A DNA stretch of 8,168 nucleotides from Okeania sp. (GTDB taxonomy: Bacteria; Cyanobacteriota; Cyanobacteriia; Cyanobacteriales; Microcoleaceae). The first letter of the stretch is position 1. Each line of letters opens with the position of its first letter. Both the position numbers and the translations under genes were made by a program. Location of the stretch: the NCBI RefSeq assembly GCF_035285525.1, contig NZ_JAYKGW010000192.1:1-8168 (forward strand). The letters run 5' to 3'. Below are positions 1-8,149 of the stretch, one piece after another. Under the pieces are notes generated by a model. It had not been told where the DNA came from. It ran no database searches and saw nothing but the letters and a program-made list of their open reading frames with translations.

Positions 1-1351
1 TTTCCATCGCTTTCAGACTGCCAATATAACTTTCCACTACCATTTTAAATAAGTCATTTGCCAGATTTTTATCTACGGAAAATTCTGTTTCTAACTCTGG
101 CAATAATTCTGGCAGTTTCGGCGATAAGTTAGTAGTAATTAAATAATGAATATCAGTAAATAGGGCAGCAATAATATTATGATAAGCTCCTAACAAAGCC
201 GAGAATTTACTAAAATCTTCACTATTAGTTTCATAGTGACTTTGAATTTCTATTCCATCTGCTGCTAATTCTTGATTTTCTCTATAAATACTCAAATTTA
301 AAGGATTATCTCCCCCAAATCTTTCGTTGATATCTTCTTCTGTTTTCCCTTTTGATAAGAGTTTTTGTTTCACATTCTTTTCCCAATTTAAAGCACGTTT
401 AATTGCAAATTCATAGAGAAATTTAGGATAATTCAAGTGAGAAATTATGGTTTTATAAAAAGGAAAAATTTCTTGTCCCCCACTCCAATAAGCAACTTGC
501 ATATTAATCAAATCTCCATCTACTTCTGATTCTATTAATAGTATTGGTTCCGATTTTAAGCGACTAAATATAGCTTTAACTGCACTACCTCCAGCAAAAC
601 GGTTACTATCCCAAGCTCGGTCTATTAATTCTGTAGGCCGTTGTTCATTTTCTAGAGAATAATATTTTTCCAGAAAATTTCGTAAGTCTTGAGAAAGACG
701 TTTTTCGACTTTAAAAAATCCAGCACTAACAGTTTTATTTGGATTTTCAAAACGGTCATAGTCAATTTCTGGAGGTGCGAGAATTATTTGCAAGGGAATA
801 GGATTTCTATCTTGATGAGATTCAATAATTTGTGATGGATAAATTTTCAGAGGCCAGTTATCTAATTCTTTAATTTCTAGGGCAACTTCTCGTTGATAAG
901 TTGCGTTAAGAAATTGATTTTCTCGATTATATTGAGAAAGTTCTATTTGCAGTTGTTTTTGTTGTTGAAATAGCCATAATTGAAATTCTTGGTAGCTTTT
1001 AGCTATTTCAATATCTACGGCTTTAATAAATTCTTGAATCTGGGGATTTTCTTGCCATTGGTATGCAACTATTTTAGCTTCAAATTCTTGACGAACAATT
1101 TCTAGTTTTTGGGGAAATTCTAGTTGAAATTGTTGATAATCTTGCGACCACTTAATCTGAGACATAGTACGCATATATTCCATCTCAAATTTAGCAACTA
1201 TTTGTTTTTCTTGTAATTCTTTTTGATGAGCTAGTTGTTCCTCTTCTAAATTTTGCTGCATGGTTTTATTGGGGGCAGTATTAAAGGCATTAATACAGTT
1301 GTTCCATACAGCAACTCCGCCATGAACTTTGGGAAGCAAATGTATAGTCAT
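1..1351 (-). CDS. Hypothetical protein, N-terminal 450 codons; the C-terminus lies beyond the left edge of the window. Q/E-rich predicted coiled-coil at about residues 30-165, followed by a globular region with no domain I can name.
   Basis: I reverse-complemented and translated 1351->1 by hand. ATG at 1349..1351 is followed by 450 sense codons with no stop (MTIHLLPKVHGGVAVWNNCINAFNTAPNKTMQQNLEEEQLAHQKELQEKQIVAKFEMEYMRTMSQIKW...IPLQIILAPPEIDYDRF...NRFAGGSAVKAIFSRLKSEPILLIESEVDGDLINMQVAYWSGG...NDLFKMVVESYIGSLKAME). A GGAGA Shine-Dalgarno lies 8 nt upstream of the ATG (ggagaaaaaaatATG). An open frame this long in stop-rich, AT-rich DNA is very unlikely by chance. It is missing from the ORF track, presumably because it has no stop inside the window. 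Confidence 0.8.
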   Translation of the reverse strand, partial: MTIHLLPKVHGGVAVWNNCINAFNTAPNKTMQQNLEEEQLAHQKELQEKQIVAKFEMEYMRTMSQIKWSQDYQQFQLEFPQKLEIVRQEFEAKIVAYQWQENPQIQEFIKAVDIEIAKSYQEFQLWLFQQQKQLQIELSQYNRENQFLNATYQREVALEIKELDNWPLKIYPSQIIESHQDRNPIPLQIILAPPEIDYDRFENPNKTVSAGFFKVEKRLSQDLRNFLEKYYSLENEQRPTELIDRAWDSNRFAGGSAVKAIFSRLKSEPILLIESEVDGDLINMQVAYWSGGQEIFPFYKTIISHLNYPKFLYEFAIKRALNWEKNVKQKLLSKGKTEEDINERFGGDNPLNLSIYRENQELAADGIEIQSHYETNSEDFSKFSALLGAYHNIIAALFTDIHYLITTNLSPKLPELLPELETEFSVDKNLANDLFKMVVESYIGSLKAME

Positions 1352-1428
1352 ATTTTTTTCTCCTGATAATTAAAAATTTTTCGTAGGCTCAAAAATTTTC
1401 AGAAATGTGGGGTTTTGTCGAGCCAGGA

Positions 1429-1456
1429 AATGTACAACTTTCTACAAAATTATCAA
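1429..1456 (-). promoter_or_regulatory. Candidate sigma70-type promoter for the 1..1351 gene (TTGATA-N16-TACATT)
   Basis: On the minus strand: TTGATA (1451..1456), a 16-nt spacer, then TACATT (1429..1434), about 80 nt upstream of the ATG. Hexamer matches like this are common in AT-rich DNA, so the support is weak. Confidence 0.2.
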
Positions 1457-1626
1457 CGTTTTTAAGTCTTTAGGAGAAAGTCTGATTCTCGAAATTCCCT
1501 AAATATCCTCGGTGGGAAAAAGTTGCACATGGCGTAACTCATGGAATATTAAAAATACTCCTTTACGCTCCACTGCTTTCTGCTTTTTATGTTGCGTAGC
1601 AAAATGCACCCTACTGAAATAATTTT

Positions 1627-1656
1627 GGGTTTGGGGGGAGTTCCTGAACCCAACAC
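1627..1656. repeat. Degenerate copy of the 'GTTGGGTT...' hairpin repeat family (minus-strand orientation)
   Basis: The reverse complement of gggtttggggggagttcctgaacccaacac begins GTGTTGGGTTCAGGAAC. This resembles GTTGGGTTTCGTTCC at 3117. GGGTT/AACCC inverted arms are present. Confidence 0.35.
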
Positions 1657-1880
1657 TTAAACTGATAAAATCTGATTTACTGTTAATTTTAACTCAGAAA
1701 AAAGTATCACAAATAATTAGGGTTTACTGATTAAATCTAAAAGCATTGATAGATAAATGTTTCAACTTTTTTAGCTTCTCAAAAAATACCCGCTTTGAGG
1801 CTGAAAATATCTGAAAAATTAAGCATTTTGGATGGAGATTTCTTCGGGGTATTAATATAGAAAAACCAAAGCTAAGTTTT

Positions 1881-1924
1881 TCCCCTTTCCTCCCAATGAC
1901 AGCATGGAAGTCATTGCCAGGGGA
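1881..1924. other. Two-tier stem-loop: TCCCCT...AGGGGA outer stem enclosing CAATGAC...GTCATTG inner stem
   Basis: TCCCCT (1881..1886) pairs with AGGGGA (1919..1924). CAATGAC (1894..1900) pairs with GTCATTG (1910..1916) around a 9-nt loop. Read directly from the sequence. Confidence 0.5.
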
Positions 1925-1966
1925 AATATTTCACTATGATTTTTCACGGTCTACCAAAAAGACCCT

Positions 1967-1997
1967 GAAGCAATCTCTAGAACTTTGAGATTGCTTC
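1967..1997. other. Perfect 11-bp inverted repeat GAAGCAATCTC-N9-GAGATTGCTTC
   Basis: The arms at 1967..1977 and 1987..1997 are exact reverse complements, with a 9-nt loop. A 5-bp hairpin GGTCT-N7-AGACC lies immediately upstream at 1948..1964. Confidence 0.6.
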
Positions 1998-2092
1998 CCT
2001 TCTCTGTTAATAAGAAATCTCAAAAAAATTTCGGAGCAGATGCTTGTTTGGAGTGCTTCAGAAAATGTTTCATTTTGATGGTTGCCTAAGAG

Positions 2093-2100
2093 GCGATCGC
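2093..2100. repeat. HIP1 octamer GCGATCGC
   Basis: Exact match, located in an intergenic region. Confidence 0.9.
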
Positions 2101-2855
2101 TATACTTCTAAGTTTTGGTTATAGGTTTATACTGTTTAGTTTTAAAATTTTAAATATTGTCAGGATTAGATGACATAATAACGGAAATTTTGCCCGATTT
2201 ATTTAACGAGCTTTCAATATTTTCAGCTCTTTGGTTCAATTTTGTGATATTCTCAAAGAATGTAAAATCCAGAGGAATGTTTTTGCTTAATTAAACTTTT
2301 AGGGGGAAAAGCTCATGATATTGTTGTTTAGAGAGGAAATTTTGTTGATTTTTTCTGCCATGAAAGACTAATTTTTCTCTGTTCCTATTAAAGCTGTTTG
2401 ACAGATTTATAGTTGTGTGGTACTCGGAATCACTTATCAGCTTTTTTAGTTTTTTTATGATATAGAACAAAATTTGGCTTGGATTTTGTTACCGTCAACT
2501 CTTGCTAAGTAATCTTGATTAATCTGGTAATTTTTCTATTTCCTCTTGAATTAAATTTGTTCAGTAATGGATAATTGATAATTACCTTTCCCGAAAAGGA
2601 AGAGGATTGAATAAAAGGAAAAAATTTATTTTTTTCTCCTTTAAAGGGGAGGCTTCAAGCCACGAATTATTTAATTATTTAATTATTAATTATTCGGTAA
2701 ATTTTCTGTATGAAATTCAAATGACAAACAGAGCCTATTAGTTCTGCTAAAATATCCCCTTTTTATTCATCTGTTAAATTTAGCAGTTTTAGTTAATTTA
2801 GTAAGAATAGAACCATCTCACATGCTTCTCCTAATTCAGATAATAATACTTATAG

Positions 2856-2898
2856 GGCTGAATCAGTCATCAGTTATCAGCCTTTTTTCAGTTTTTTT
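2856..2898 (+). terminator. Candidate intrinsic terminator on the plus strand
   Basis: GGCTGA (2856..2861) pairs with TCAGCC (2877..2882) around a 15-nt loop. It is followed by TTTTTTCAGTTTTTTT (2883..2898). The short stem and long loop make it weak. The loop and arm consist of ATCAGNN heptamers. Confidence 0.35.
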
Positions 2899-3116
2899 GA
2901 TCATGTAAAATAAGATTTTGCCAATCTCATCTGCACCTTTTCAGTTATAAGTTATTTCATTTATTAATATTTAGTTTATCCTGCGGATAAGATTTCCTCA
3001 AGTTCCTAAAATACTGGAATTCTTGCTCTAAAATCTTGCAATAGTAAGGGCAGGTTTTAGCTAGAATTTTAATACTTACTCTAAAATTTATATAAACCCG
3101 CCCTAATGCACTAAAT

Positions 3117-3167
3117 GTTGGGTTTCGTTCCATCCTACGCAACCCTAACGGGAACAACCCGACCTAC
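3117..3167. repeat. Small hairpin repeat of the 'GTTGGGTTTCG...CCTAC' family (MITE-like fragment)
   Basis: In gttgggtttcgttccatcctacgcaaccctaacgggaacaacccgacctac, GTTCC pairs with GGAAC and GGGT pairs with ACCC. A related degenerate copy lies at 1627..1656. This sequence accounts for much of the spurious 66-aa ORF at 2957..3157. Confidence 0.5.
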
Positions 3168-3248
3168 ATTATATATTATTGCCAAAGAAATGAGGTTAAA
3201 TTAATTAACCAAAATACAAAAAACACCCTATAAAATTGTGAGATAAGT

Positions 3249-3647
3249 TTAATTAGAGCTAGTAGGAAAGACTTTTAATAGTTGATTTTGTAAATCAAGT
3301 TCAATACCTAAAGCTTCTAGTGGCAATACTCCTAATAAAGAGTCCTTACCTCCAGAAATTTCTAAACATTCAAAAGTTCCTTCCCATCCAAGTAGAGAAA
3401 TTTTAGCATCTTGAAAAATGCCTGCTTTACTAATACCAGTAGCAGTCATGACATCTACTTATTTAAGAATTTCTAATCCTAATTGAGCGATCGCTTCTGG
3501 TGGTAAACAGAGAGTTGTAGCTCCCGTATCTACCAAAACATATTTAATAACAATATAACGTACTTCTTCAATAGAAATCCAACCTTGAGAAGCATTTGTT
3601 TTATTTATATGATTATTGATGACTAAATTTGTAGTTATTTTACCCAT
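3249..3647 (-). pseudogene. Retropepsin-like (clan AA, single DTG) aspartic protease, about 132 codons, interrupted by one in-frame TAA at 3459..3461
   Basis: Track ORFs 3459..3665 and 3249..3449 are in the same frame. The junction reads ...PEAIAQLGLEILK-TAA-VDV-MTATGISK.... The N-terminal half carries the catalytic motif VLVDTGATTLCLP. The C-terminal half (GKDSLLGVLPLEALGIELD) resembles the dimerisation end of small bacterial retropepsin-like proteases. The combined length is typical for that family. The likely start is ATG at 3645..3647 (MGKITT...); the track ORF starts at a TTG at 3663..3665. Confidence 0.75.
3487..3494. repeat. HIP1 octamer GCGATCGC
   Basis: Exact match, inside the protease pseudogene. 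Confidence 0.9.
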
Positions 3648-3704
3648 TGAATTTTGATCGACCAACTACATAAACTTTTTCTATTTTATTCTATCTTAAA
3701 GTTC

Positions 3705-3840
3705 ATTAGGGTGTCTTAGGGAAGCGTAGTGCATCATGTTTTTGGATAACTTTTGAATTAATTATGGTGCTATATCGTCAATTTTTTTTATATGATTTTT
3801 AAATTAATTATGGTGCGTTAAGTCTAACGCCTAACTCACC
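3705..3840. repeat. Composite hairpin repeat unit A (about 135 bp)
   Basis: Aligns to unit B at a 161-bp offset with roughly 75-80% identity by eye. It shares ...aattaattatggtgctatatcgtcaatttttt(tt)atatgatttttaaattaa(t/c)t(a/g)tggtgcgtta.... It ends in the hairpin GCGTTA-agtc-TAACGC (3815..3830). Confidence 0.7.
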
Positions 3841-3865
3841 TAAAATCTAATAACTGAAGTATTCT

Positions 3866-4000
3866 ATTAGGATGTGTTACGCTTCGCTAACACACCATCT
3901 TTTTTGATAATTTTTGCATTAATCATAGTGCTATATCGTCAATTTTTTATATGATTTTTAAATTAACTGTGGTGCGTTACGGCTAGCGCCTAACACACCC
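3866..4000. repeat. Composite hairpin repeat unit B (about 135 bp); overlaps the last codons and stop codon of the helicase
   Basis: Begins with the hairpin GATGTGTTA-cgcttcgc-TAACACACC (3871..3896). Ends with GGTGCGTTA-cggctagcgcc-TAACACACC (3971..3999), one mismatch per stem. The helicase TAG (3990..3992) lies inside the second hairpin. Confidence 0.7.
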
Positions 4001-6398
4001 TACAACTTGGAAACTTCTCTCTTAAAGCATATAAAATAGGACTTGGTTTTTGTACTTGTAAATTTTCCGGTTTATTCCAAGTAAAAGGCGCTTCTTTAGC
4101 AGCACACATCCACAACAACTTTTTTGCCCTAGTCATTGCCACATATAATAACCTAAATTCTTCAGCCATTTTTAAATATCCTGCCTGTTCCCAAGCTTTA
4201 GAAATATCTAGTAAATCTTCTCCTTGTAAACTTGCTCGAATTTGCGCTCTAGCAACTTCAGCTAAATCAAAATCTCCCAAAAAAGTAGCTTGAGGCAAAA
4301 CTCTTAAATTACCAGGAATTATATTTTCATGCAAAAAAGGTAGAAAAACAAAATCCCAATCTAAACCCTTAGACTTGTGCATCGTAATAATAGTAAGTTG
4401 TCGAGAACGAGTATAATATTCCTCTGCATTTTCTTCCACATCTACAGTTTCAAATCTCTCAGAATTAACAATTTCACTTAACACTTCTAACATAGAATTA
4501 ATCGAACTATTATTAGCAGTTTGTTTAGCAACTCTTTCAGCTAACTTATCAGCAGTTGCCAAATCTGACTGTTTATAATTTAAAGCCAAAGCCAAAAAAG
4601 AAATTAATTGATAAAGAGGCAATTCTAATTTTGCTTTAAGCAAACTACGACAAAAATCTCGACATTTACGCACCTTTTCTGACTGATATGGATCGAGAGG
4701 ACCAGGGTAAAGAAATTGTTCTAATTGAGACGCAAAATAATTATAATCTTGCTGGGGAATTAAGTGGCGATCGCCTAAAACTTTTAAAGCAGATTTTAAA
4801 TAATCTGGAGAATGAGGGCGATAAATAAACTGCATTAATGCTAATATTTCTGCCGGAATTTGAGAGTGACGTGCTCCTTGAGAAACATCCTGTATTTTAA
4901 TACCATAATCTCCTAAATTAATTTCGATTCCATACTTTCCAGGTTCGCTAAAAGTATCTGCAATAAATTGACCTTGTTTATTTTCTCTTACTAATACTGC
5001 AAATTTACCTTCAGGATTTTCTTCAAACAAATTAATTATCCGTTTACCCATCAATTTAAGAGTTTGATAAATATCTCTAGGTTCATATATTTCCAAACCA
5101 TTACCAGTAGCTAAAGGATTATGATTATTTTCTGATTCTTTAACTTTTACAGGATGAATATCTTGGTCTCGAAATGGTTTTTCTTTTCCTGCTAAATTCA
5201 AACTATTTACCCACTTCAACACAAAATTAGCAGCATCAATAATTATCTGACAACTACGACCTGCTTGTTCCATAAATGCTAATTTTTCTAACTGTTCACA
5301 CTCTTCACAAAATCGCCGAAAATCTATTGGATCGGCTGGAGTAAATGTAGAATTAATTGCTTGATTTGGGTCTCCCACACGCATCAAATTTAGATGACTT
5401 AATTTTGATAATCTTTCTTCCTGAGCCAGAGAATTAAAATCTAAATTACTATCATTATTATCACTAGAAGTAGCCAGAATTTCTAATAACTTAGTTTGTA
5501 AAGGTGTCGAATCTTGAGCTTCATCTTCAAACACAGCAAATACTTGCTTTTGCCACATTTTTCTAGCACCTTCATTTTGCAATACTCGTAAAGCAGCCAA
5601 AATCATTTCATCATAGTCAATTAATCTACTTTCCCTCAACATTTCCTGATATATTTGATATAAACTAGCAGCAATATTTAAAACCTGATAATTATCATTT
5701 GTCTTCTCTCTTAGTTCCCATAAATCTTCAGGTTTAAGACCAGAACTTTTTGCCTGTTGAATAGCTTTCCAAGCTAACTGAGGTAGTACTTCAGTTCTTA
5801 AAACAGACTGCCTTCTTAACCGTTCCGTTTCCTCTCCATCAAACTGACTTCCCTCAATTAAAAATTGATAATGTCTTGGATTTTTAGCAATCCAACTTTC
5901 TACACAACTGCGAGTTATCTTATTACTAGGAGTAGGCAAAACCAAATTATAATTTTCCAAATCTAACTCAGATAACTCAGGGTGACGTAGAGCAATACTT
6001 AAAGCCAAACCATGCAAAGTATGAACAACAAAACCACCTTCAGGTAAAGATAACTCCTTTAAAAATTGACGAATTTTAACCCTAATATTAGTCGCTGCCG
6101 AACGAGTAAAAGTAACAACAATTAATTGATGATGACTATGTAACTTATAGCGAGCGATCGCTAATGCTGCTGCTGTTGCCAAACCATAAGATTTTCCGGC
6201 TCCAGGAACTGCTGATACTGCCAAAGGTCCTCCTTTCCAGTCAGCCATTTGTTGTTGTCCTGGTCTTAAAGAAGAACAAATTTTTTCAATTGTTTGTTCC
6301 CTTAAAGTTGCTATTGATAAAGTATTTTCTATATCTTTAGTATTAGTTTTAAGGTCATCAAATGAAAGTGTAAAATTATCGGAAAAATCGTCAGTCAC
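3990..6398 (-). CDS. SF1 UvrD/Rep/PcrA-family ATP-dependent DNA helicase (802 aa as drawn)
   Basis: SF1 motifs appear in the correct order: Walker A AVPGAGKS; Ia VVTFTRSAATN; II (DExx) VFEDEAQDS; III RVGDPNQAIN; V-like TIITMHKSKGLDWDFVF; VI LLYVAMTRAKKLL. The start as drawn is GTG (6396..6398) with no clear SD and lies inside a repeat unit, so the exact start is uncertain. No in-frame ATG occurs before the conserved LRPGQ...GGPL region, so translation must begin near this position. Confidence 0.9.
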   Translation of the reverse strand: MTDDFSDNFTLSFDDLKTNTKDIENTLSIATLREQTIEKICSSLRPGQQQMADWKGGPLAVSAVPGAGKSYGLATAAALAIARYKLHSHHQLIVVTFTRSAATNIRVKIRQFLKELSLPEGGFVVHTLHGLALSIALRHPELSELDLENYNLVLPTPSNKITRSCVESWIAKNPRHYQFLIEGSQFDGEETERLRRQSVLRTEVLPQLAWKAIQQAKSSGLKPEDLWELREKTNDNYQVLNIAASLYQIYQEMLRESRLIDYDEMILAALRVLQNEGARKMWQKQVFAVFEDEAQDSTPLQTKLLEILATSSDNNDSNLDFNSLAQEERLSKLSHLNLMRVGDPNQAINSTFTPADPIDFRRFCEECEQLEKLAFMEQAGRSCQIIIDAANFVLKWVNSLNLAGKEKPFRDQDIHPVKVKESENNHNPLATGNGLEIYEPRDIYQTLKLMGKRIINLFEENPEGKFAVLVRENKQGQFIADTFSEPGKYGIEINLGDYGIKIQDVSQGARHSQIPAEILALMQFIYRPHSPDYLKSALKVLGDRHLIPQQDYNYFASQLEQFLYPGPLDPYQSEKVRKCRDFCRSLLKAKLELPLYQLISFLALALNYKQSDLATADKLAERVAKQTANNSSINSMLEVLSEIVNSERFETVDVEENAEEYYTRSRQLTIITMHKSKGLDWDFVFLPFLHENIIPGNLRVLPQATFLGDFDLAEVARAQIRASLQGEDLLDISKAWEQAGYLKMAEEFRLLYVAMTRAKKLLWMCAAKEAPFTWNKPENLQVQKPSPILYALREKFPSCRVC
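4767..4774. repeat. HIP1 octamer GCGATCGC
   Basis: Exact match, inside the helicase CDS. Confidence 0.9.
6154..6161. repeat. HIP1 octamer GCGATCGC
   Basis: Exact match, inside the helicase CDS. Confidence 0.9.
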
Positions 6399-6462
6399 TT
6401 TATTTAAAATCGTCAGTTAAAATTAAAAGTTTAGCAGAAAATATTAATGTTTATTTCTTGCT
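6362..6462 (-). repeat. Array unit 0: the genuine helicase start region (first 12 codons, about 35-nt leader and hairpin H0)
   Basis: Roughly 80% identical by eye over about 100 bp to units 1-3. Imperfect hairpin H0: AGCAGAAAATA-ttaatgtt-TATTTCTTGCT (6433..6462). Confidence 0.75.
6384..6417. repeat. Perfect 12-bp direct repeat AAAATCGTCAGT x2, 22 bp start-to-start, bracketing the helicase GTG
   Basis: The copies at 6384..6395 and 6406..6417 are identical (ACTGACGATTTT on the minus strand). One copy forms codons 2-5. The other lies 8-19 nt upstream of the GTG. Confidence 0.6.
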
Positions 6463-6470
6463 AAATTTTT

Positions 6471-6595
6471 TCACTCTTTTATCATATAGATAGATGGAAG
6501 TGTAAAACTATTAGAAAAATCCTTAGTCACCTTCTTGAAAATTGCCAGTTAAAGTTTTTAAGTTTAGTAAGAAATATTGATGTTTATTTCTTGCT
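6471..6595 (-). repeat. Array unit 1 (125 bp) containing a pseudo-start and hairpin H1
   Basis: Differs from unit 2 (6674..6798) at only 2 positions. The minus strand reads GTG ACT AAG GAT TTT TCT AAT AGT TTT ACA CTT... (MTKDFSNSFTLPSIYMIKE*), compared with the helicase MTDDFSDNFTLSF.... Hairpin H1: AGTAAGAAATA-ttgatgtt-TATTTCTTGCT (6566..6595). Confidence 0.8.
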
Positions 6596-6634
6596 GTTCC
6601 CTGTTTCCTATTCCATCTTTTATAATAAAAGTTT

Positions 6635-6664
6635 AGCAAGAAATATTAATGTTTATTTCTTGCT
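6635..6664. repeat. Solo hairpin module H2 with a perfect 11-bp stem
   Basis: AGCAAGAAATA-ttaatgtt-TATTTCTTGCT has exactly complementary arms. It is preceded by the same 'aaaagttt' context as H0. Confidence 0.8.
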
Positions 6665-6673
6665 CCCCCCTTT

Positions 6674-6798
6674 TCACTCTTTTATCACATAGATAGATGG
6701 AAGTGTAAAACTATTAGAAAAATCCTTAGTCACCTTCTTGAAAATTGCCAGTTAAAGTTTTTAATTTTAGTAAGAAATATTGATGTTTATTTCTTGCT
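6674..6798 (-). repeat. Array unit 2 (125 bp) containing a pseudo-start and hairpin H3
   Basis: 123/125 identical to unit 1 at a 203-bp offset. Hairpin H3 is at 6769..6798. Confidence 0.8.
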
Positions 6799-6807
6799 GT
6801 TCCTTTT

Positions 6808-6928
6808 TCTCTCTTTTATCGGATAGATGGAAGTGTAAAACTATCAGAAAAATCCTTAGTCACCTTCCTGAAAATTGCCAGTTAAAATTTTTAAGTTGAG
6901 CAGTAAATATTAATGTTTATTTCTTGCT
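6808..6928 (-). repeat. Array unit 3 containing a pseudo-start and hairpin H4
   Basis: The 102-bp core (6827..6928) has about 8 mismatches to unit 1. The pseudo-ORF reads MTKDFSDSFTLPSIR*. Hairpin H4: AGCAGTAAATA-ttaatgtt-TATTTCTTGCT (6899..6928). Confidence 0.75.
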
Positions 6929-6933
6929 GTTCC

Positions 6934-6989
6934 CTATTTCCTGTTCTCTGTTCTCTGTTCTCTGTTCTCTATTCTCTATTTCCTCTTTT
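6934..6989. repeat. Tandem heptanucleotide tract (STRR-like), 8 units of CT(G/A/C)TT(C/T)(T/C), including CTGTTCT x4
   Basis: Read directly: ctatttc ctgttct ctgttct ctgttct ctgttct ctattct ctatttc ctctttt. Confidence 0.8.
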
Positions 6990-6999
6990 ATCATAGTTG

Positions 7000-7029
7000 A
7001 GCAGAAAATATTAATGTTTACTTTTTACT
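7000..7029. repeat. Degenerate hairpin module H5, abutting and overlapping the kinase stop codon
   Basis: AGCAGAAAATA-ttaatgtt-TACTTTTTACT keeps the same loop and left arm as H0. The right arm has diverged. Confidence 0.5.
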
Positions 7030-8149
7030 ATTCCCTGTTCCCTGTTCCCTCTTTCATAATAGGAAAATAAAGATAAAAAGTTGTACCTTTCCCTACAGTT
7101 GATTCAAAATAAATTTCTCCATTATGAGCATCAACAATTGTTTTGACAATAGCAGTACCTAATCCTATACCACCCTGCTTATCACTTACAAAAGCATCAA
7201 ATAAATTCTCTTTAATTTCTTCAGGAATACCACAACCATTATCCGAAAATGTAATTTCAACCCATTCATCTTTTCTCTTAACTTTAATTTCTATCCTACC
7301 TTGATTTTGATGGAAAGCTTCTATAGCATTAGCTAATAAATTTTGTAATACCCGATTAATTTTATTTTCATCAGCATATATGACTAAATCCTCTTCAACA
7401 GAAATTATCAATTTCACAGAAGTAGAATCAACATAAACTTGGTTGATTTTTTTAAAGCTTTGTAATAACTTTTCTATATTAACTGGTTGACAGTATAATT
7501 TTGTATCTCCCTTAGAAAAAGCCAGTACCTCTTCCGCCATATTTAACATTCGTTGAACTTGAATAGAAATTAGATTGCACCACTCTTGACTTTCTGGATC
7601 TGGATGAAGTTCTTTTAAGATAGAACTTGATAATTGAATACCAGTAAAAGGGCTTTTAAAATCGTGAATAATAGTGTTAACCATCTCTCCAATGAAAGTC
7701 ATTTTTTCTTTATAAGCTAATTGATTAACATATTCCGTCGTCATAGAACGAAGTCTGTCAGGCAAAACACTTAATATTTTTAAAACAATATCCCCTTTTG
7801 TTTCAGCTAATATATCCATTATTTGGTCATAATAAATTTTAGCTATAGTTGTTTCTTTAAAAGTAATTACTCTAGCAATTCTTGGTTGTCTATCTACAAT
7901 TCCTAATTCGCCAAAATAATCATTTGATTCAAAAGATGTAATCACAACATAATTTTTATCTCTCCCACTTTTTTTCCTAACTTGAATTTGAACTTCACCT
8001 TCCAAAATTAAAAATAAGGCATCTGAATCACCACCTTGTTCAATAATAATCTCCTGGGAATTAAATTTTTCAATAATAGCAATCTGACAAATTTGTTGAG
8101 CTTGTTCCGGTTCAAAATAACGAATAAACTTATGTTCTTCTAGTTTCAT
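7028..8149 (-). CDS. Sensor histidine kinase with an N-terminal cyclic-nucleotide-binding (CAP/Crp effector-type) domain
   Basis: cNMP-binding signature: LFLILEGEV...YFGELGIVDRQPRIARVIT. H-box: IIHDFKSPFTGI. N-box: VLQNLLANAIEA. G1: FSDNGCGIPEE. G2: GGIGLGTAIVKTIV. ATG at 8147..8149 and TAG at 7028..7030. No transmembrane segment is evident, so the protein is probably soluble. Confidence 0.9.
   Translation of the reverse strand: MKLEEHKFIRYFEPEQAQQICQIAIIEKFNSQEIIIEQGGDSDALFLILEGEVQIQVRKKSGRDKNYVVITSFESNDYFGELGIVDRQPRIARVITFKETTIAKIYYDQIMDILAETKGDIVLKILSVLPDRLRSMTTEYVNQLAYKEKMTFIGEMVNTIIHDFKSPFTGIQLSSSILKELHPDPESQEWCNLISIQVQRMLNMAEEVLAFSKGDTKLYCQPVNIEKLLQSFKKINQVYVDSTSVKLIISVEEDLVIYADENKINRVLQNLLANAIEAFHQNQGRIEIKVKRKDEWVEITFSDNGCGIPEEIKENLFDAFVSDKQGGIGLGTAIVKTIVDAHNGEIYFESTVGKGTTFYLYFPIMKEGTGNRE
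7031..7051. repeat. Three tandem heptamers TTCCCTG TTCCCTG TTCCCTC encoding the kinase C-terminal tail
   Basis: The minus strand reads GAGGGAA CAGGGAA CAGGGAA TAG, which translates as ...EGTGNRE*. Confidence 0.8.

Follow-up and report, generated by a model that had tools for sequence, protein, structure and literature searches.

The spacer between a histidine kinase gene and a UvrD/PcrA-type helicase gene of Okeania sp. is probably a young, unstable and lineage-specific tandem segmental amplification of local DNA. It spans 6399-7027 (629 bp) of the window (the whole stretch of 8,168 nucleotides that was analysed), in which all the genes are on the minus strand. The GTG at 6398 is the true helicase start because the N-terminus MTDDF... 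is conserved in more than 50 homologues. Helicase codons 1-13 are the portion duplicated into the repeat units; the spacer harbours three extra copies of the helicase leader with these 13 codons, and a 30-nt palindrome occurs in it six times (H1 to H6). A second tandem duplication in the window (~160-nt) overlaps the helicase stop codon. From the kinase to the helicase, the features are the following:

7028..8149, minus strand: histidine kinase with a cyclic-nucleotide-binding domain (Pfam cNMP_binding, HisKA, HATPase_c), the gene upstream of the spacer
7000..7029, minus strand: palindrome H6, with its first base inside the kinase stop codon; the most degenerate copy (8/11 pairs), followed by a 6-nt leader stub only
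6929..6999, minus strand: unit tail T6 (TATGATAAAAGAGG...), whose heptamer tract has expanded (minus-strand AGAGAAC; plus-strand CTGTTCT x5.3 at 6941-6977)
6799..6928, minus strand: repeat unit 3 (U3), with H5 (6928..6899), leader copy (6898..6864), pseudo-start GTG at 6863, 15-codon ORF (6863..6816) and tail
6665..6798, minus strand: repeat unit 2 (U2), with H4 (6798..6769), leader copy, pseudo-start GTG at 6733, 19-codon ORF (6733..6674) and a tail ending in GGGGGG
6596..6664, minus strand: short unit, with H3 (6664..6635; the perfect palindrome copy), a leader stub of 9 nt (AAACTTTTA) and a heptamer-bearing tail
6463..6595, minus strand: repeat unit 1 (U1), with H2 (6595..6566), leader copy, pseudo-start GTG at 6530, 19-codon ORF (6530..6471) and tail
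6399..6462, minus strand: genuine helicase upstream element, with H1 (6462..6433) and a 34-nt leader (6432..6399)
3990..6398, minus strand: UvrD/PcrA-type helicase, 802 aa, GTG start at 6398 (Pfam UvrD-helicase, UvrD_C)

Tandem Repeats Finder returned two periods, 203 nt (1.9 copies, 94% matches, score 688) and 130 nt (2.4 copies, 86% matches, score 478), and a repeat search located a 63-nt leader/start block four times (at 6362, 6494, 6697 and 6827) and the palindrome block six times. U1 and U2 were 99% identical over their 102-nt cores, with exactly two mismatches over 125 nt (6485 T/C and 6562 G/T); identity was 91-92% between U3 and U1/U2, and 80-84% between the genuine unit and the extra units. 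The pseudo-ORFs starting at GTG 6530, 6733 and 6863 encode MTKDFSNSFTLPSIYMIKE, MTKDFSNSFTLPSIYVIKE and MTKDFSDSFTLPSIR (19, 19 and 15 codons respectively), each followed by a stop codon. The palindromes at 6433, 6566, 6635, 6769, 6899 and 7000 form 9, 10, 11, 10, 9 and 8 Watson-Crick pairs of 11, and their loop reads TTAATGTT four times and TTGATGTT twice. The perfect 30-mer was matched within 2 mismatches by five copies, and none of 200 window shuffles gave any match. These results bear out the sequence-only reading, which had described the 629 bp as structured repeats, the helicase-start block recurring three times upstream, 2 differences in 125 positions between U1 and U2, U3 at about 92% and the genuine unit at about 80% identity, extra copies made of a GTG and a 15-19-codon ORF, and six palindromes with a near-invariant loop, one of them perfect.

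Each repeat unit begins with the final ~9 kinase codons, takes in the heptamer tract, palindrome and leader, and ends at helicase codon 13. The 3' end of the kinase gene (about 7030-7065, ...FPIMKEGTGNRE and stop) is unlike that of its orthologues, which end in FPLATR, FPLVV or FPIAEVD; in the tail alignment these last ~9 codons, together with a GGGAACA heptamer tract that Tandem Repeats Finder placed at 7031-7050, proved homologous to the tail of all repeat units. At the other end, the extra units align to orthologous helicase 5' ends as far as ACACTTCCATCTA (codon 13), and they retain an ancestral Leu-Pro-Ser since lost from the genuine copy. Heptamer tracts are present at all unit borders. 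Head-to-tail duplication in this Okeania lineage first copied ~130 nt, from the kinase last codons to helicase codon 13, and the product was re-duplicated at least three more times with differing end points, including a 203-bp event. The two periods of 130 and 203 nt, the identity of H2 and H4 and the resemblance of H1 to H3 indicate several duplication phases. The short unit is a product of the 203-bp duplication, which copied H1, U1 and H2 as H3, U2 and H4.

The identical helicase and 117 bp upstream of it, with the U1-H1-start junction, recur in a Logan contig (locus L001) assembled independently from run SRR19514071 at k=31, the k-mer length of Logan assemblies (PMC12424806). This contig stops at window position 6515, exactly 30 nt beyond 6485, the base separating U1 from U2. 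A 31-mer graph must branch at this point if the reads hold two copies, and the break therefore supports a real array. Moreover, the units can be told apart by the 92% identity of U3, by unique junctions and by differing tails. A short-read mis-assembly, or else a MITE/REP-like mobile element inserted repeatedly, is barely credible as the origin of the array. At 8.2 kb, the contig that forms the window is short and belongs to a metagenome-assembled genome, U1 and U2 are identical over 76 nt, a length that short reads barely bridge, and the exact copy number could be wrong; but the assembly graph branches just where two copies are predicted. As for a mobile element, the unit holds the ends of both flanking genes, which makes it local and not foreign DNA, and dispersed copies were not found in 185,579 representative genomes, in metagenomes or in the remainder of the window. 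The 21-mer core of the palindrome had seven matches in those representative genomes, and the two cyanobacterial ones were each a single copy at the orthologous locus. The pseudo-start 19-mer had only two matches, both unrelated, in 241 million metagenome records.

The kinase-helicase order is kept at 11 orthologous loci (Dapis, Okeania, Trichodesmium and other Microcoleaceae), and none of them carries the unit more than once. A single unit was present in Dapis M172, M229 and M126, Okeania SIO3I5, Microcoleaceae MO_207 (L020), two Trichodesmium loci and the metagenomic L005, L016 and L017; these include the closest relative, whose helicase is 90% identical. Okeania and Trichodesmium were placed as close relatives by the helicase search. 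The relatives' spacers (46-92 bp) consist of a heptamer tract, present in every orthologous spacer, an AT-rich imperfect palindrome and a ~35 nt leader. In orthologues the palindrome stem measures 8 bp and is all-AT or mismatched, except where one arm is gone, in L005, L017 and Trichodesmium. Judging from these loci, the ancestral kinase-helicase spacer was short and single-copy. Single-copy orthologous loci had been named beforehand as a result that would weaken the claim, and the two fallback readings offered at that time, serial leader amplification and neutral slippage or unequal recombination, fit these comparative data.

Another Okeania clade (SIO1I7/SIO2G4; L019, L025) has its own helicase-leader array in the same kinase-helicase spacer. 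As in the present array, every unit has a palindrome, a small one, and is bordered by a heptamer tract; ~70 nt directly upstream of the GTG were amplified in tandem, and copy number differs among close strains (4, 3 or 1 in strains with 96%-identical helicases). By contrast, the SIO1I7/SIO2G4 units end ~3 nt before the start codon and are consequently without decoy ORFs, and the palindrome (CTGTTACTCAGTAAC), the heptamer (GAGTAGG) and the periods (88-129 nt) also differ. Because its junctions are different from those described here, the SIO1I7/SIO2G4 array is an independent event. Across ~108 kb of DNA from related loci, ~12 tandem arrays had a period of at least 40 nt, a density of about 1 per 10 kb, and some had heptamer tracts inside the units; such repeat-rich genomes commonly undergo long-period tandem duplication.

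The core ATAAACAYYAATATTT of the genuine upstream element is kept at the equivalent place in orthologues. The asymmetric core ACATTAATATTT, ~48-43 nt upstream of the GTG, is the most conserved upstream block across all orthologues and most likely contains the -10 box of the helicase promoter, TAATAT, located at 6446..6441 (minus strand) within the loop and right arm of H1. In L005 and L017 the entire spacer is a heptamer tract plus a ~57-nt block containing the conserved core, so any helicase-specific promoter must sit there. This conservation, an asymmetry that suits a promoter better than a symmetric protein-binding site, and the independent arraying of the same leader in the second Okeania clade are consistent with an adaptive promoter/leader amplification selected twice in Okeania, in which three to five stacked sense promoters would raise helicase transcription or uncouple it from the kinase. 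However, we consider this unlikely. No convincing -35 hexamer accompanies TAATAT, a predicted -10, and two of the five upstream palindrome copies (H2 and H4) carry CAATAT, with a mutated first T. Upstream transcripts would have to traverse decoy ORFs and stem-loops, and a single copy suffices in most relatives, the closest included. Given the density of such arrays, two in one spacer among ~6 sampled clades is not clearly above chance.

An array of small-RNA genes, NsiR1-like or Trichodesmium-repeat-RNA-like, would produce one short transcript per unit regulating helicase translation, either a plus-strand RNA antisense to the pseudo-start (81-84% complementary to the helicase initiation region) or a minus-strand RNA of ~130 nt reaching the next hairpin. 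The arrangement recalls both the NsiR1 array upstream of hetF (PMC9045159) and the T. erythraeum array, with its partial adjacent-gene copies and opposite-strand transcription (PMC4143802). H2, H4 and H5 are more stable as plus-strand RNA (-12.0, -12.0 and -6.9 kcal/mol, vs. -5.6, -5.6 and -5.0 on the minus strand), which G-U pairs account for; TTTTTT follows H1 on the plus strand, and a promoter-like TTGCTA-16-TATCAT lies at 6458-6485 of that strand. We nevertheless regard small RNAs as quite improbable. H2 and H4 derive from one duplication, which leaves two substitutions as the source of the strand bias, and H6 is biased the other way, towards the minus strand. Promoter-like sites in the region were not in excess (4 vs. 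a mean of 3.6 in shuffles), and TATCAT becomes TATCAC or TATCGG in other units. A plus-strand TTGAAA-N18-TAAGTT had been reported in units 1 and 2; it stands in unit 1, but unit 2 reads TTGAAA-N18-TAATTT and unit 3 CTGAAA, and neither plus-strand candidate is kept from unit to unit. These hexamers were found in no single-copy orthologue. Transcription from TTGAAA-N18-TAAGTT would start 4-6 nt within the 5' arm of the hairpin, which therefore could not form. The spacer gave no Rfam family match even at E <= 10, the TCCGGA (DIF1) motif is missing from the entire window, as had been noted before, and the array is absent from orthologues. The 50-70-nt plus-strand RNAs with their own promoter and terminator, proposed from the sequence, were thus not supported, given the lack of an Rfam match and a promoter intact in one unit only, and the NsiR1-like reading failed on every feature examined.

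A simple terminator scan was passed by one of the six hairpins, H3 on the minus strand (11-bp stem followed by AAACTTTTAT), contrary to the earlier suggestion of a terminator in every unit. This gene-strand result for H3, and H6 adjoining the kinase stop codon, speak for a stack of terminators or an insulator, in which six stem-loops would progressively block kinase read-through and the helicase would be transcribed from its own promoter only. Kinase and helicase are probably co-transcribed in Trichodesmium, because the genes are 46 bp apart there, and a larger spacer could uncouple them. We find such a stack very improbable: the gene-strand stems are AT-rich and weak (-3.6 to -8.7 kcal/mol in 5/6 hairpins), the T-runs behind them are short and offset by AAAC, and the kinase-adjacent copy is the weakest of the six. 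Moreover, the orthologous stem is poor or one-armed, indicating that termination is not the ancestral role.

The tandem amplification of local DNA likely arose through replication slippage or unequal recombination, for which the heptamer tracts bordering the units, and perhaps the palindrome, would have been the seed. If TAATAT is the -10 box, each full unit would supply an additional promoter, an additional leader and a decoy GTG opening a 15-19-codon ORF. The palindromes would contribute weak stem-loops between kinase and helicase. Overall, the array probably affects helicase expression little or is neutral, and we infer that it has little or no function. The extra copies are already decaying, as indicated by CAATAT in H2/H4 and by extra leaders that have diverged more than the genuine one.

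Some observations speak against this account. Independent amplification of this spacer in two Okeania clades could reflect selection on helicase expression and not a mutational hot spot. Such arrays can be strongly expressed, as in Trichodesmium erythraeum (PMC4143802). Palindrome pairing is stronger here than in every orthologue (up to 11 bp, with 3 G-C pairs), and all six copies are still foldable. The extra units are ~19% off the genuine unit, so the array is not very young unless the copies evolve unconstrained.

Filamentous cyanobacteria reportedly carry short tandemly repeated heptamers (STRR; Mazel et al. 1990). The border tracts GGGAACA, AGAGAAC and CAGGGAA resemble them in being tandem heptamers in intergenic DNA, although their sequences presumably differ from the classical STRR1-3. 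Unlike the present array, STRR are heptamer tracts only, and not 130-203-nt units with gene ends and a palindrome.

The NsiR1 array of Nostoc/Anabaena, upstream of hetF (Ionescu et al. 2010; PMC9045159), likewise consists of short tandem units just 5' of a protein gene in a filamentous cyanobacterium, with identical to slightly divergent copies, the gene-nearest of which overlaps the gene 5' region. NsiR1 comprises ~60-nt RNA genes, each with a DIF1 (TCCGGA) promoter, is expressed specifically in heterocysts and is conserved across at least 19 heterocystous species. By contrast, the Okeania array has no sequence or structure match to NsiR1, no DIF1, other neighbour genes, a non-heterocystous host and no promoter conserved between units, and it is missing from close relatives.

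The array beside Tery_0080 in T. erythraeum IMS101 is transcribed from the opposite strand, and its RNA is the cell's most abundant (Pfreundt et al. 2014, PMC4143802). Its units are longer (736-973 bp, with more than 6 kb in total, vs. 69-134 bp and 0.6 kb) and combine a gene 3' part with foreign sequence, whereas the array described here holds a gene 5' part and local sequence only. In other respects the two arrays are alike: both are head-to-tail, intergenic beside a gene of a marine filamentous cyanobacterium, carry a partial copy of the neighbouring gene's end in all units, and have near-identical central copies and more diverged outer ones. The origin of the Tery_0080 array was ascribed by its authors to duplication events (PMC4143802).

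The 8,168-bp contig belongs to a metagenome-assembled genome (MAG) of Okeania sp., and the spacer (6399-7027, 629 bp) separates two genes:

8149..7028, minus strand, histidine kinase with a cyclic-nucleotide-binding domain
6398..3990, minus strand, UvrD/PcrA-type helicase (NCBI protein MEB3342708.1)

In the NCBI annotation the helicase has 774 aa and its first residues are MATLREQ. Reading from the GTG at 6398 gives the N-terminus MTDDF(D/N/S).NF.., which over 50 homologues also have (Dapis, Okeania, Trichodesmium, Lyngbya, Planktothrix and Microcoleus). This comparison indicates that the GTG at 6398 is the true start and the deposited start 28 codons too short (6312-6398); the helicase entry thus needs 28 more codons at its start. 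On the 3' side of the helicase (1-3990), no ORF exceeds 68 aa over nearly 4 kb. Two adjacent minus-strand ORFs (3459-3665 and 3249-3449) resemble a broken aspartyl-protease gene with a VDTGATT motif; their Pfam matches (gag-asp_proteas and Asp_protease_2, E = 1e-3 to 4e-3) are under the curated cut-offs. A second tandem duplication (3725-4046, approximately 160 nt, 84% identical) lies at the helicase 3' end, its proximal copy overlapping the end of the helicase reading frame, stop codon included. Both copies contain a palindrome of the GTGTTAG...GTAACAC type, and part of a third copy lies at approximately 3870-3897.

The spacer consisted of repeats over nearly its whole length. Tandem Repeats Finder (TRF) reported two periods, one of 203 nt (94% matches, score 688) and the other of 130 nt (86%, score 478), and a repeat search found a 63-nt block (leader, start codon and approximately 11 codons) four times and a 30-nt palindrome six times (H1 to H6, at 6433, 6566, 6635, 6769, 6899 and 7000). 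The tandem array described in the sequence-only reading was confirmed. Recomputed core identities were 99% between the extra units U1 (6463..6595) and U2 (6665..6798), with 2 of 125 positions differing exactly as first counted. They were 91-92% for U3 (6799..6928) against U1 and U2, and 80-84% between the genuine unit (the helicase's own leader and start) and the extra ones; about 92% and 80% had been estimated. The decoy ORFs after the extra GTGs run for 19, 19 and 15 codons, matching the 15-19 proposed. In the palindromes, 8 to 11 of the 11 stem positions form Watson-Crick pairs, one of the six copies being perfect, as had been noticed. None of 200 window shuffles gave even one match, so the palindrome is not a chance occurrence. 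Unit borders are marked by heptamer tracts (TRF: CTGTTCT, 5.3 copies, 6941-6977; TTCCCTG, 2.9 copies, 7031-7050). As the MTDDF N-terminus is common to the homologues, the repeats copy the genuine 5' end of the helicase gene.

The order of kinase and helicase was kept across relatives; the length of the spacer was not.

Length of the kinase-helicase spacer in relatives
Two Trichodesmium loci: 46 bp
Metagenomic loci L005 and L017: 85-92 bp
Okeania KiyG1: 223 bp
Okeania SIO2G4: 383 bp
Dapis M172: 649 bp
Okeania SIO1I7: 654 bp
Microcoleaceae MO_207: 860 bp
Okeania SIO3I5: 1,011 bp

A single copy at orthologous loci had been named beforehand as part of a result that would weaken the claim, and such single copies were found: the window-type block (palindrome-like core, leader and start) occurs once in 11 of 11 loci from other lineages. 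The closest relative (helicase 90% identical) has one such block. The long spacers of relatives are taken up by other heptamer tracts and unrelated sequence. In almost every orthologue a heptamer tract directly follows the kinase stop or directly precedes the helicase upstream core, and the heptamer varies by lineage (TAATTAA, TAATTGA, GGAAGAA, GAATTTA, CCCCACA, GAGTAGG, GGGAACA).

Heptamer tracts at orthologous loci
L002: 3350-3383
L003: 2974-3033
L005: 3906-3957
L017: 1082-1126
L024 (KiyG1): 2313-2374
L020 (MO_207): about 2360-2400

After the helicase, the MO_207 locus carries genes with pPIWI_RE_REase and pPIWI_RE_Z domains (5324-7406), which are part of a prokaryotic Argonaute-related defence module; these genes are present neither in the window nor at the other orthologous loci.

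The repeat units were aligned with the single-copy orthologous regions (alignment A1) and the unit tails with the kinase 3' end (alignment A3). In A1, the extra units match orthologous sequence up to ACACTTCCATCTA, which is helicase codon 13, and are divergent beyond; they retain the ancestral Leu-Pro-Ser, where the genuine copy now has Leu-Ser-Phe. Beyond codon 13, every unit has (T)ATGATAAAAGAG and a purine-rich heptamer tract, which align with the nine codons that end the kinase gene, CCTATTATGAAAGAGGGAACAGGGAACAGGGAATAG (A3). Together, the alignments therefore define the unit as kinase 3' end, heptamers, palindrome, leader and helicase codons 1-13. The joining of codon 13 to a copy of the kinase end is the junction expected from tandem duplication of a segment spanning a gene end and the start of the next gene. 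Repeated local duplication, copying the ends of both flanking genes, enlarged a spacer of approximately 100 bp to 629 bp. It follows from the 203-nt period that the block H1-U1-H2 was later copied as H3-U2-H4, which accounts for the short unit at H3, with a leader of only 9 nt. The leader after H6 is cut off much like that after H3. End points differ, which argues for repeated, imprecise duplication and not for a modular element. The array further shows head-to-tail copies, graded identity, nested periods (203 and 130), a unit derived from local unique sequence, junctions that join both segment ends, a single copy in relatives and a variable number in a second Okeania clade, all features of tandem segmental duplication. 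The comparison of orthologues and junctions thus supports what the sequence-only reading had kept as a fallback, a leader amplified through slippage or unequal recombination.

The upstream protein was affected as well. The kinase C-terminal tail FPIMKEGTGNRE (IMKEGTGNRE, 7028-7065) is unlike that of any orthologue (FPLATR*, FPLVV*, FPIAEVD*, FPVAKIY*), and it is encoded by unit-tail sequence and the GGGAACA heptamer tract, so that part of the tail is translated heptamers. The kinase thus owes its altered C-terminus to the array.

In Okeania sp. SIO1I7 (helicase 81% identical to that of the window), the spacer between these two genes carries a tandem array as well. Approximately 70 nt upstream of the GTG are present four times, genuine copy counted, each with a small palindrome, CTGTTACTCAGTAAC, and with GAGTAGG heptamer tracts between copies; these units end approximately 3 nt short of the start codon, so that there are no decoy ORFs. 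Palindrome, heptamer and unit ends are unlike those of the window, and the SIO1I7 array is therefore a separate event. SIO1I7, SIO2G4 and KiyG1 carry four, three and one copies of their own leader, and their helicases are 96% identical; copy number therefore changes fast.

Own-leader arrays and single copy in the second Okeania clade
L019 (SIO1I7): 2135-2500
L025 (SIO2G4): 2270-2500
L024 (KiyG1): 2280-2500

Of the new findings, the return of such an array in a second clade, together with its copy-number polymorphism, is the most interesting. With two independent hits on this spacer and copy numbers that differ between near-identical strains, the locus is a convenient natural system in which to measure the dynamics of tandem duplication.

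An independent Logan assembly (contig L001, run SRR19514071) contains an identical helicase and 117 bp upstream, matching through H1 into U1. Its end (L001 position 1) corresponds to window position 6515, exactly 30 nt (k-1) past 6485, a base that separates U1 from U2. Logan contigs are built on 31-mers (PMC12424806), and in a 31-mer graph a branch is expected at this point where two differently flanked copies exist in the reads. The 31-mer contig thus ends where a branch is predicted for two copies; the exact copy number given here is provisional. Contig ends k-1 past a distinguishing base are, more generally, simple evidence for real repeat copies.

The locus-specificity of the palindrome was checked, as had been suggested, with its 21-nt core against 185,579 representative genomes. 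Of seven hits, two came from cyanobacteria, in each case a single copy at the orthologous locus; five came from unrelated bacteria and are chance matches. A metagenome scan with the pseudo-start 19-mer gave two hits, both in unrelated sequence, and within the window the palindrome is confined to the spacer. Judged by the representative genomes, the metagenomes and the window, as distinct from the organism's remaining genome, the unit is locus-specific and lineage-specific and not mobile. A dispersed MITE- or REP-like palindrome was rejected on the same scope (no unrelated cyanobacterial loci in the 185,579 genomes; copies in the window only in the spacer; the organism's remaining genome outside the search). 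The intervals between palindromes (39-104 nt) repeat each other and the flanking genes. A CRISPR array was rejected, as these intervals are not unique and the window has no cas gene.

Other tandem arrays are common around this locus in relatives. In approximately 108 kb of fetched related loci, TRF found about 12 arrays with a period of at least 40 nt, or approximately 1 per 10 kb; heptamer tracts occur within the units of some.

Other tandem arrays at Okeania/Dapis loci (periods 74-207 nt), some possibly within repeat-protein genes
L003: 7126-7701 and 8832-9881
L024: 5766-6245 (ACTGATA heptamer tracts within each unit)
L005: 6889-7317 and 8125-8526
L002: 10043-10417

Approximately 40% of the T. 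erythraeum genome is non-coding, and the RNA present there in the highest amount derives from a tandem array over 6 kb long, each unit of which includes a duplicate of the 3' portion of the adjacent gene (PMC4143802; review PMC6596454). The array density in the related loci and the second duplication in the window agree with this published picture.

The sequence-only reading had preferred plus-strand small RNAs of 50-70 nt, in the manner of NsiR1. NsiR1 lies upstream of hetF in heterocyst-forming cyanobacteria, whereas the array here lies between genes for a cNMP-binding histidine kinase and a UvrD-type helicase; Okeania is not known to form heterocysts. Each NsiR1 unit has one start and one terminator and gives an RNA of approximately 60 nt. 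Each also carries a separate promoter containing the DIF1 motif TCCGGA (PMC9045159). The absence of NsiR1 identity and of TCCGGA, both remarked on at first sight, held up: cmscan of the window against Rfam 15 (E <= 10) found nothing relevant in the spacer, the only match in 6399-7027 being a chance one to FopS (E = 8.4, overlapping 6322-6408), and TCCGGA occurs 0 times on both strands of the window. Promoter-like sites were not enriched in the region (4 found vs. 3.6 expected in shuffles). One hairpin of six (H3, minus strand) passed the terminator scan; the stems have 2-3 G-C pairs or fewer, with folding energies of -2.3 to -12.9 kcal/mol. The plus-strand promoter TTGAAA-N18-TAAGTT, which had been assigned to units 1 and 2, is intact in unit 1, but unit 2 has TAATTT and unit 3 CTGAAA, and orthologues lack it. 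The hairpin begins at 6566, just two bases beyond the last base of this promoter's -10 (6564), and transcription would therefore start 4-6 nt inside the hairpin 5' arm. This promoter was rejected, and an NsiR1-like array, having no Rfam hit, DIF1 motif or promoter enrichment and a start inside a hairpin arm, is unsupported.

H2, H4 and H5 fold slightly more stably on the plus strand and H6 on the other; since H2 and H4 represent one duplication event and H6 is opposite, the plus-strand bias carries little weight. Covariation across orthologues was too weak for a conserved structure (a pair that is G-C here is T-A in two loci and mismatched in three), and L005, L017 and Trichodesmium have lost one of the two arms. 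The best-conserved upstream block across all orthologues is an asymmetric core, A(T/C)AAACAYYAATATTT, which includes TAATAT 42 nt before the GTG. We infer that TAATAT is the putative -10 box of the helicase promoter, with a start near the palindrome 3' end and a leader of approximately 35 nt. Each full unit would then be a spare promoter, leader and decoy start, and the array, if it acts at all, would alter helicase transcription or its coupling to the kinase. CAATAT stands in two of the upstream palindrome copies, and divergence is greater in the extra leaders than in the genuine leader, which fits decay without constraint. Two other candidates were rejected: plus-strand TTGCTA-16-TATCAT as a per-unit promoter (the -10 is TATCAC or TATCGG in other units), and TAAAAT just before the GTG in orthologues as a -10 (the mRNA would start past the start codon, and the motif is not kept in the window).

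Rather than debris, the array might also be a selected regulatory device for tuning a UvrD-type repair helicase, either a tandem promoter bank or a source of short sense/antisense RNAs and micro-ORFs; it would have arisen convergently in two Okeania clades and be a small relative of the massively transcribed gene-fragment array of Trichodesmium. We consider this unlikely; across the rival readings, the recurrence in the second clade leaves a modest chance that the amplification is selected or expressed. If per-unit transcripts are later seen, the locus could be used to test the birth of small RNAs or promoter banks from gene 5' ends. As a product of tandem duplication, it is a clear and dated case of growth in the large non-coding fraction of Trichodesmium/Okeania-type genomes.

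Compared with known systems, the array falls into a class described before in this lineage, tandem repeats between genes that take in gene ends; it is smaller than the described example, and its origin is clear. As in STRR-type repeats, tandem heptanucleotides lie in the intergenic DNA of a filamentous cyanobacterium, here and in the orthologous spacers. With the Tery_0080 array of Trichodesmium it shares tandem units beside a gene, each with a partial copy of that gene; the Tery_0080 units give a highly abundant non-coding RNA (PMC4143802).
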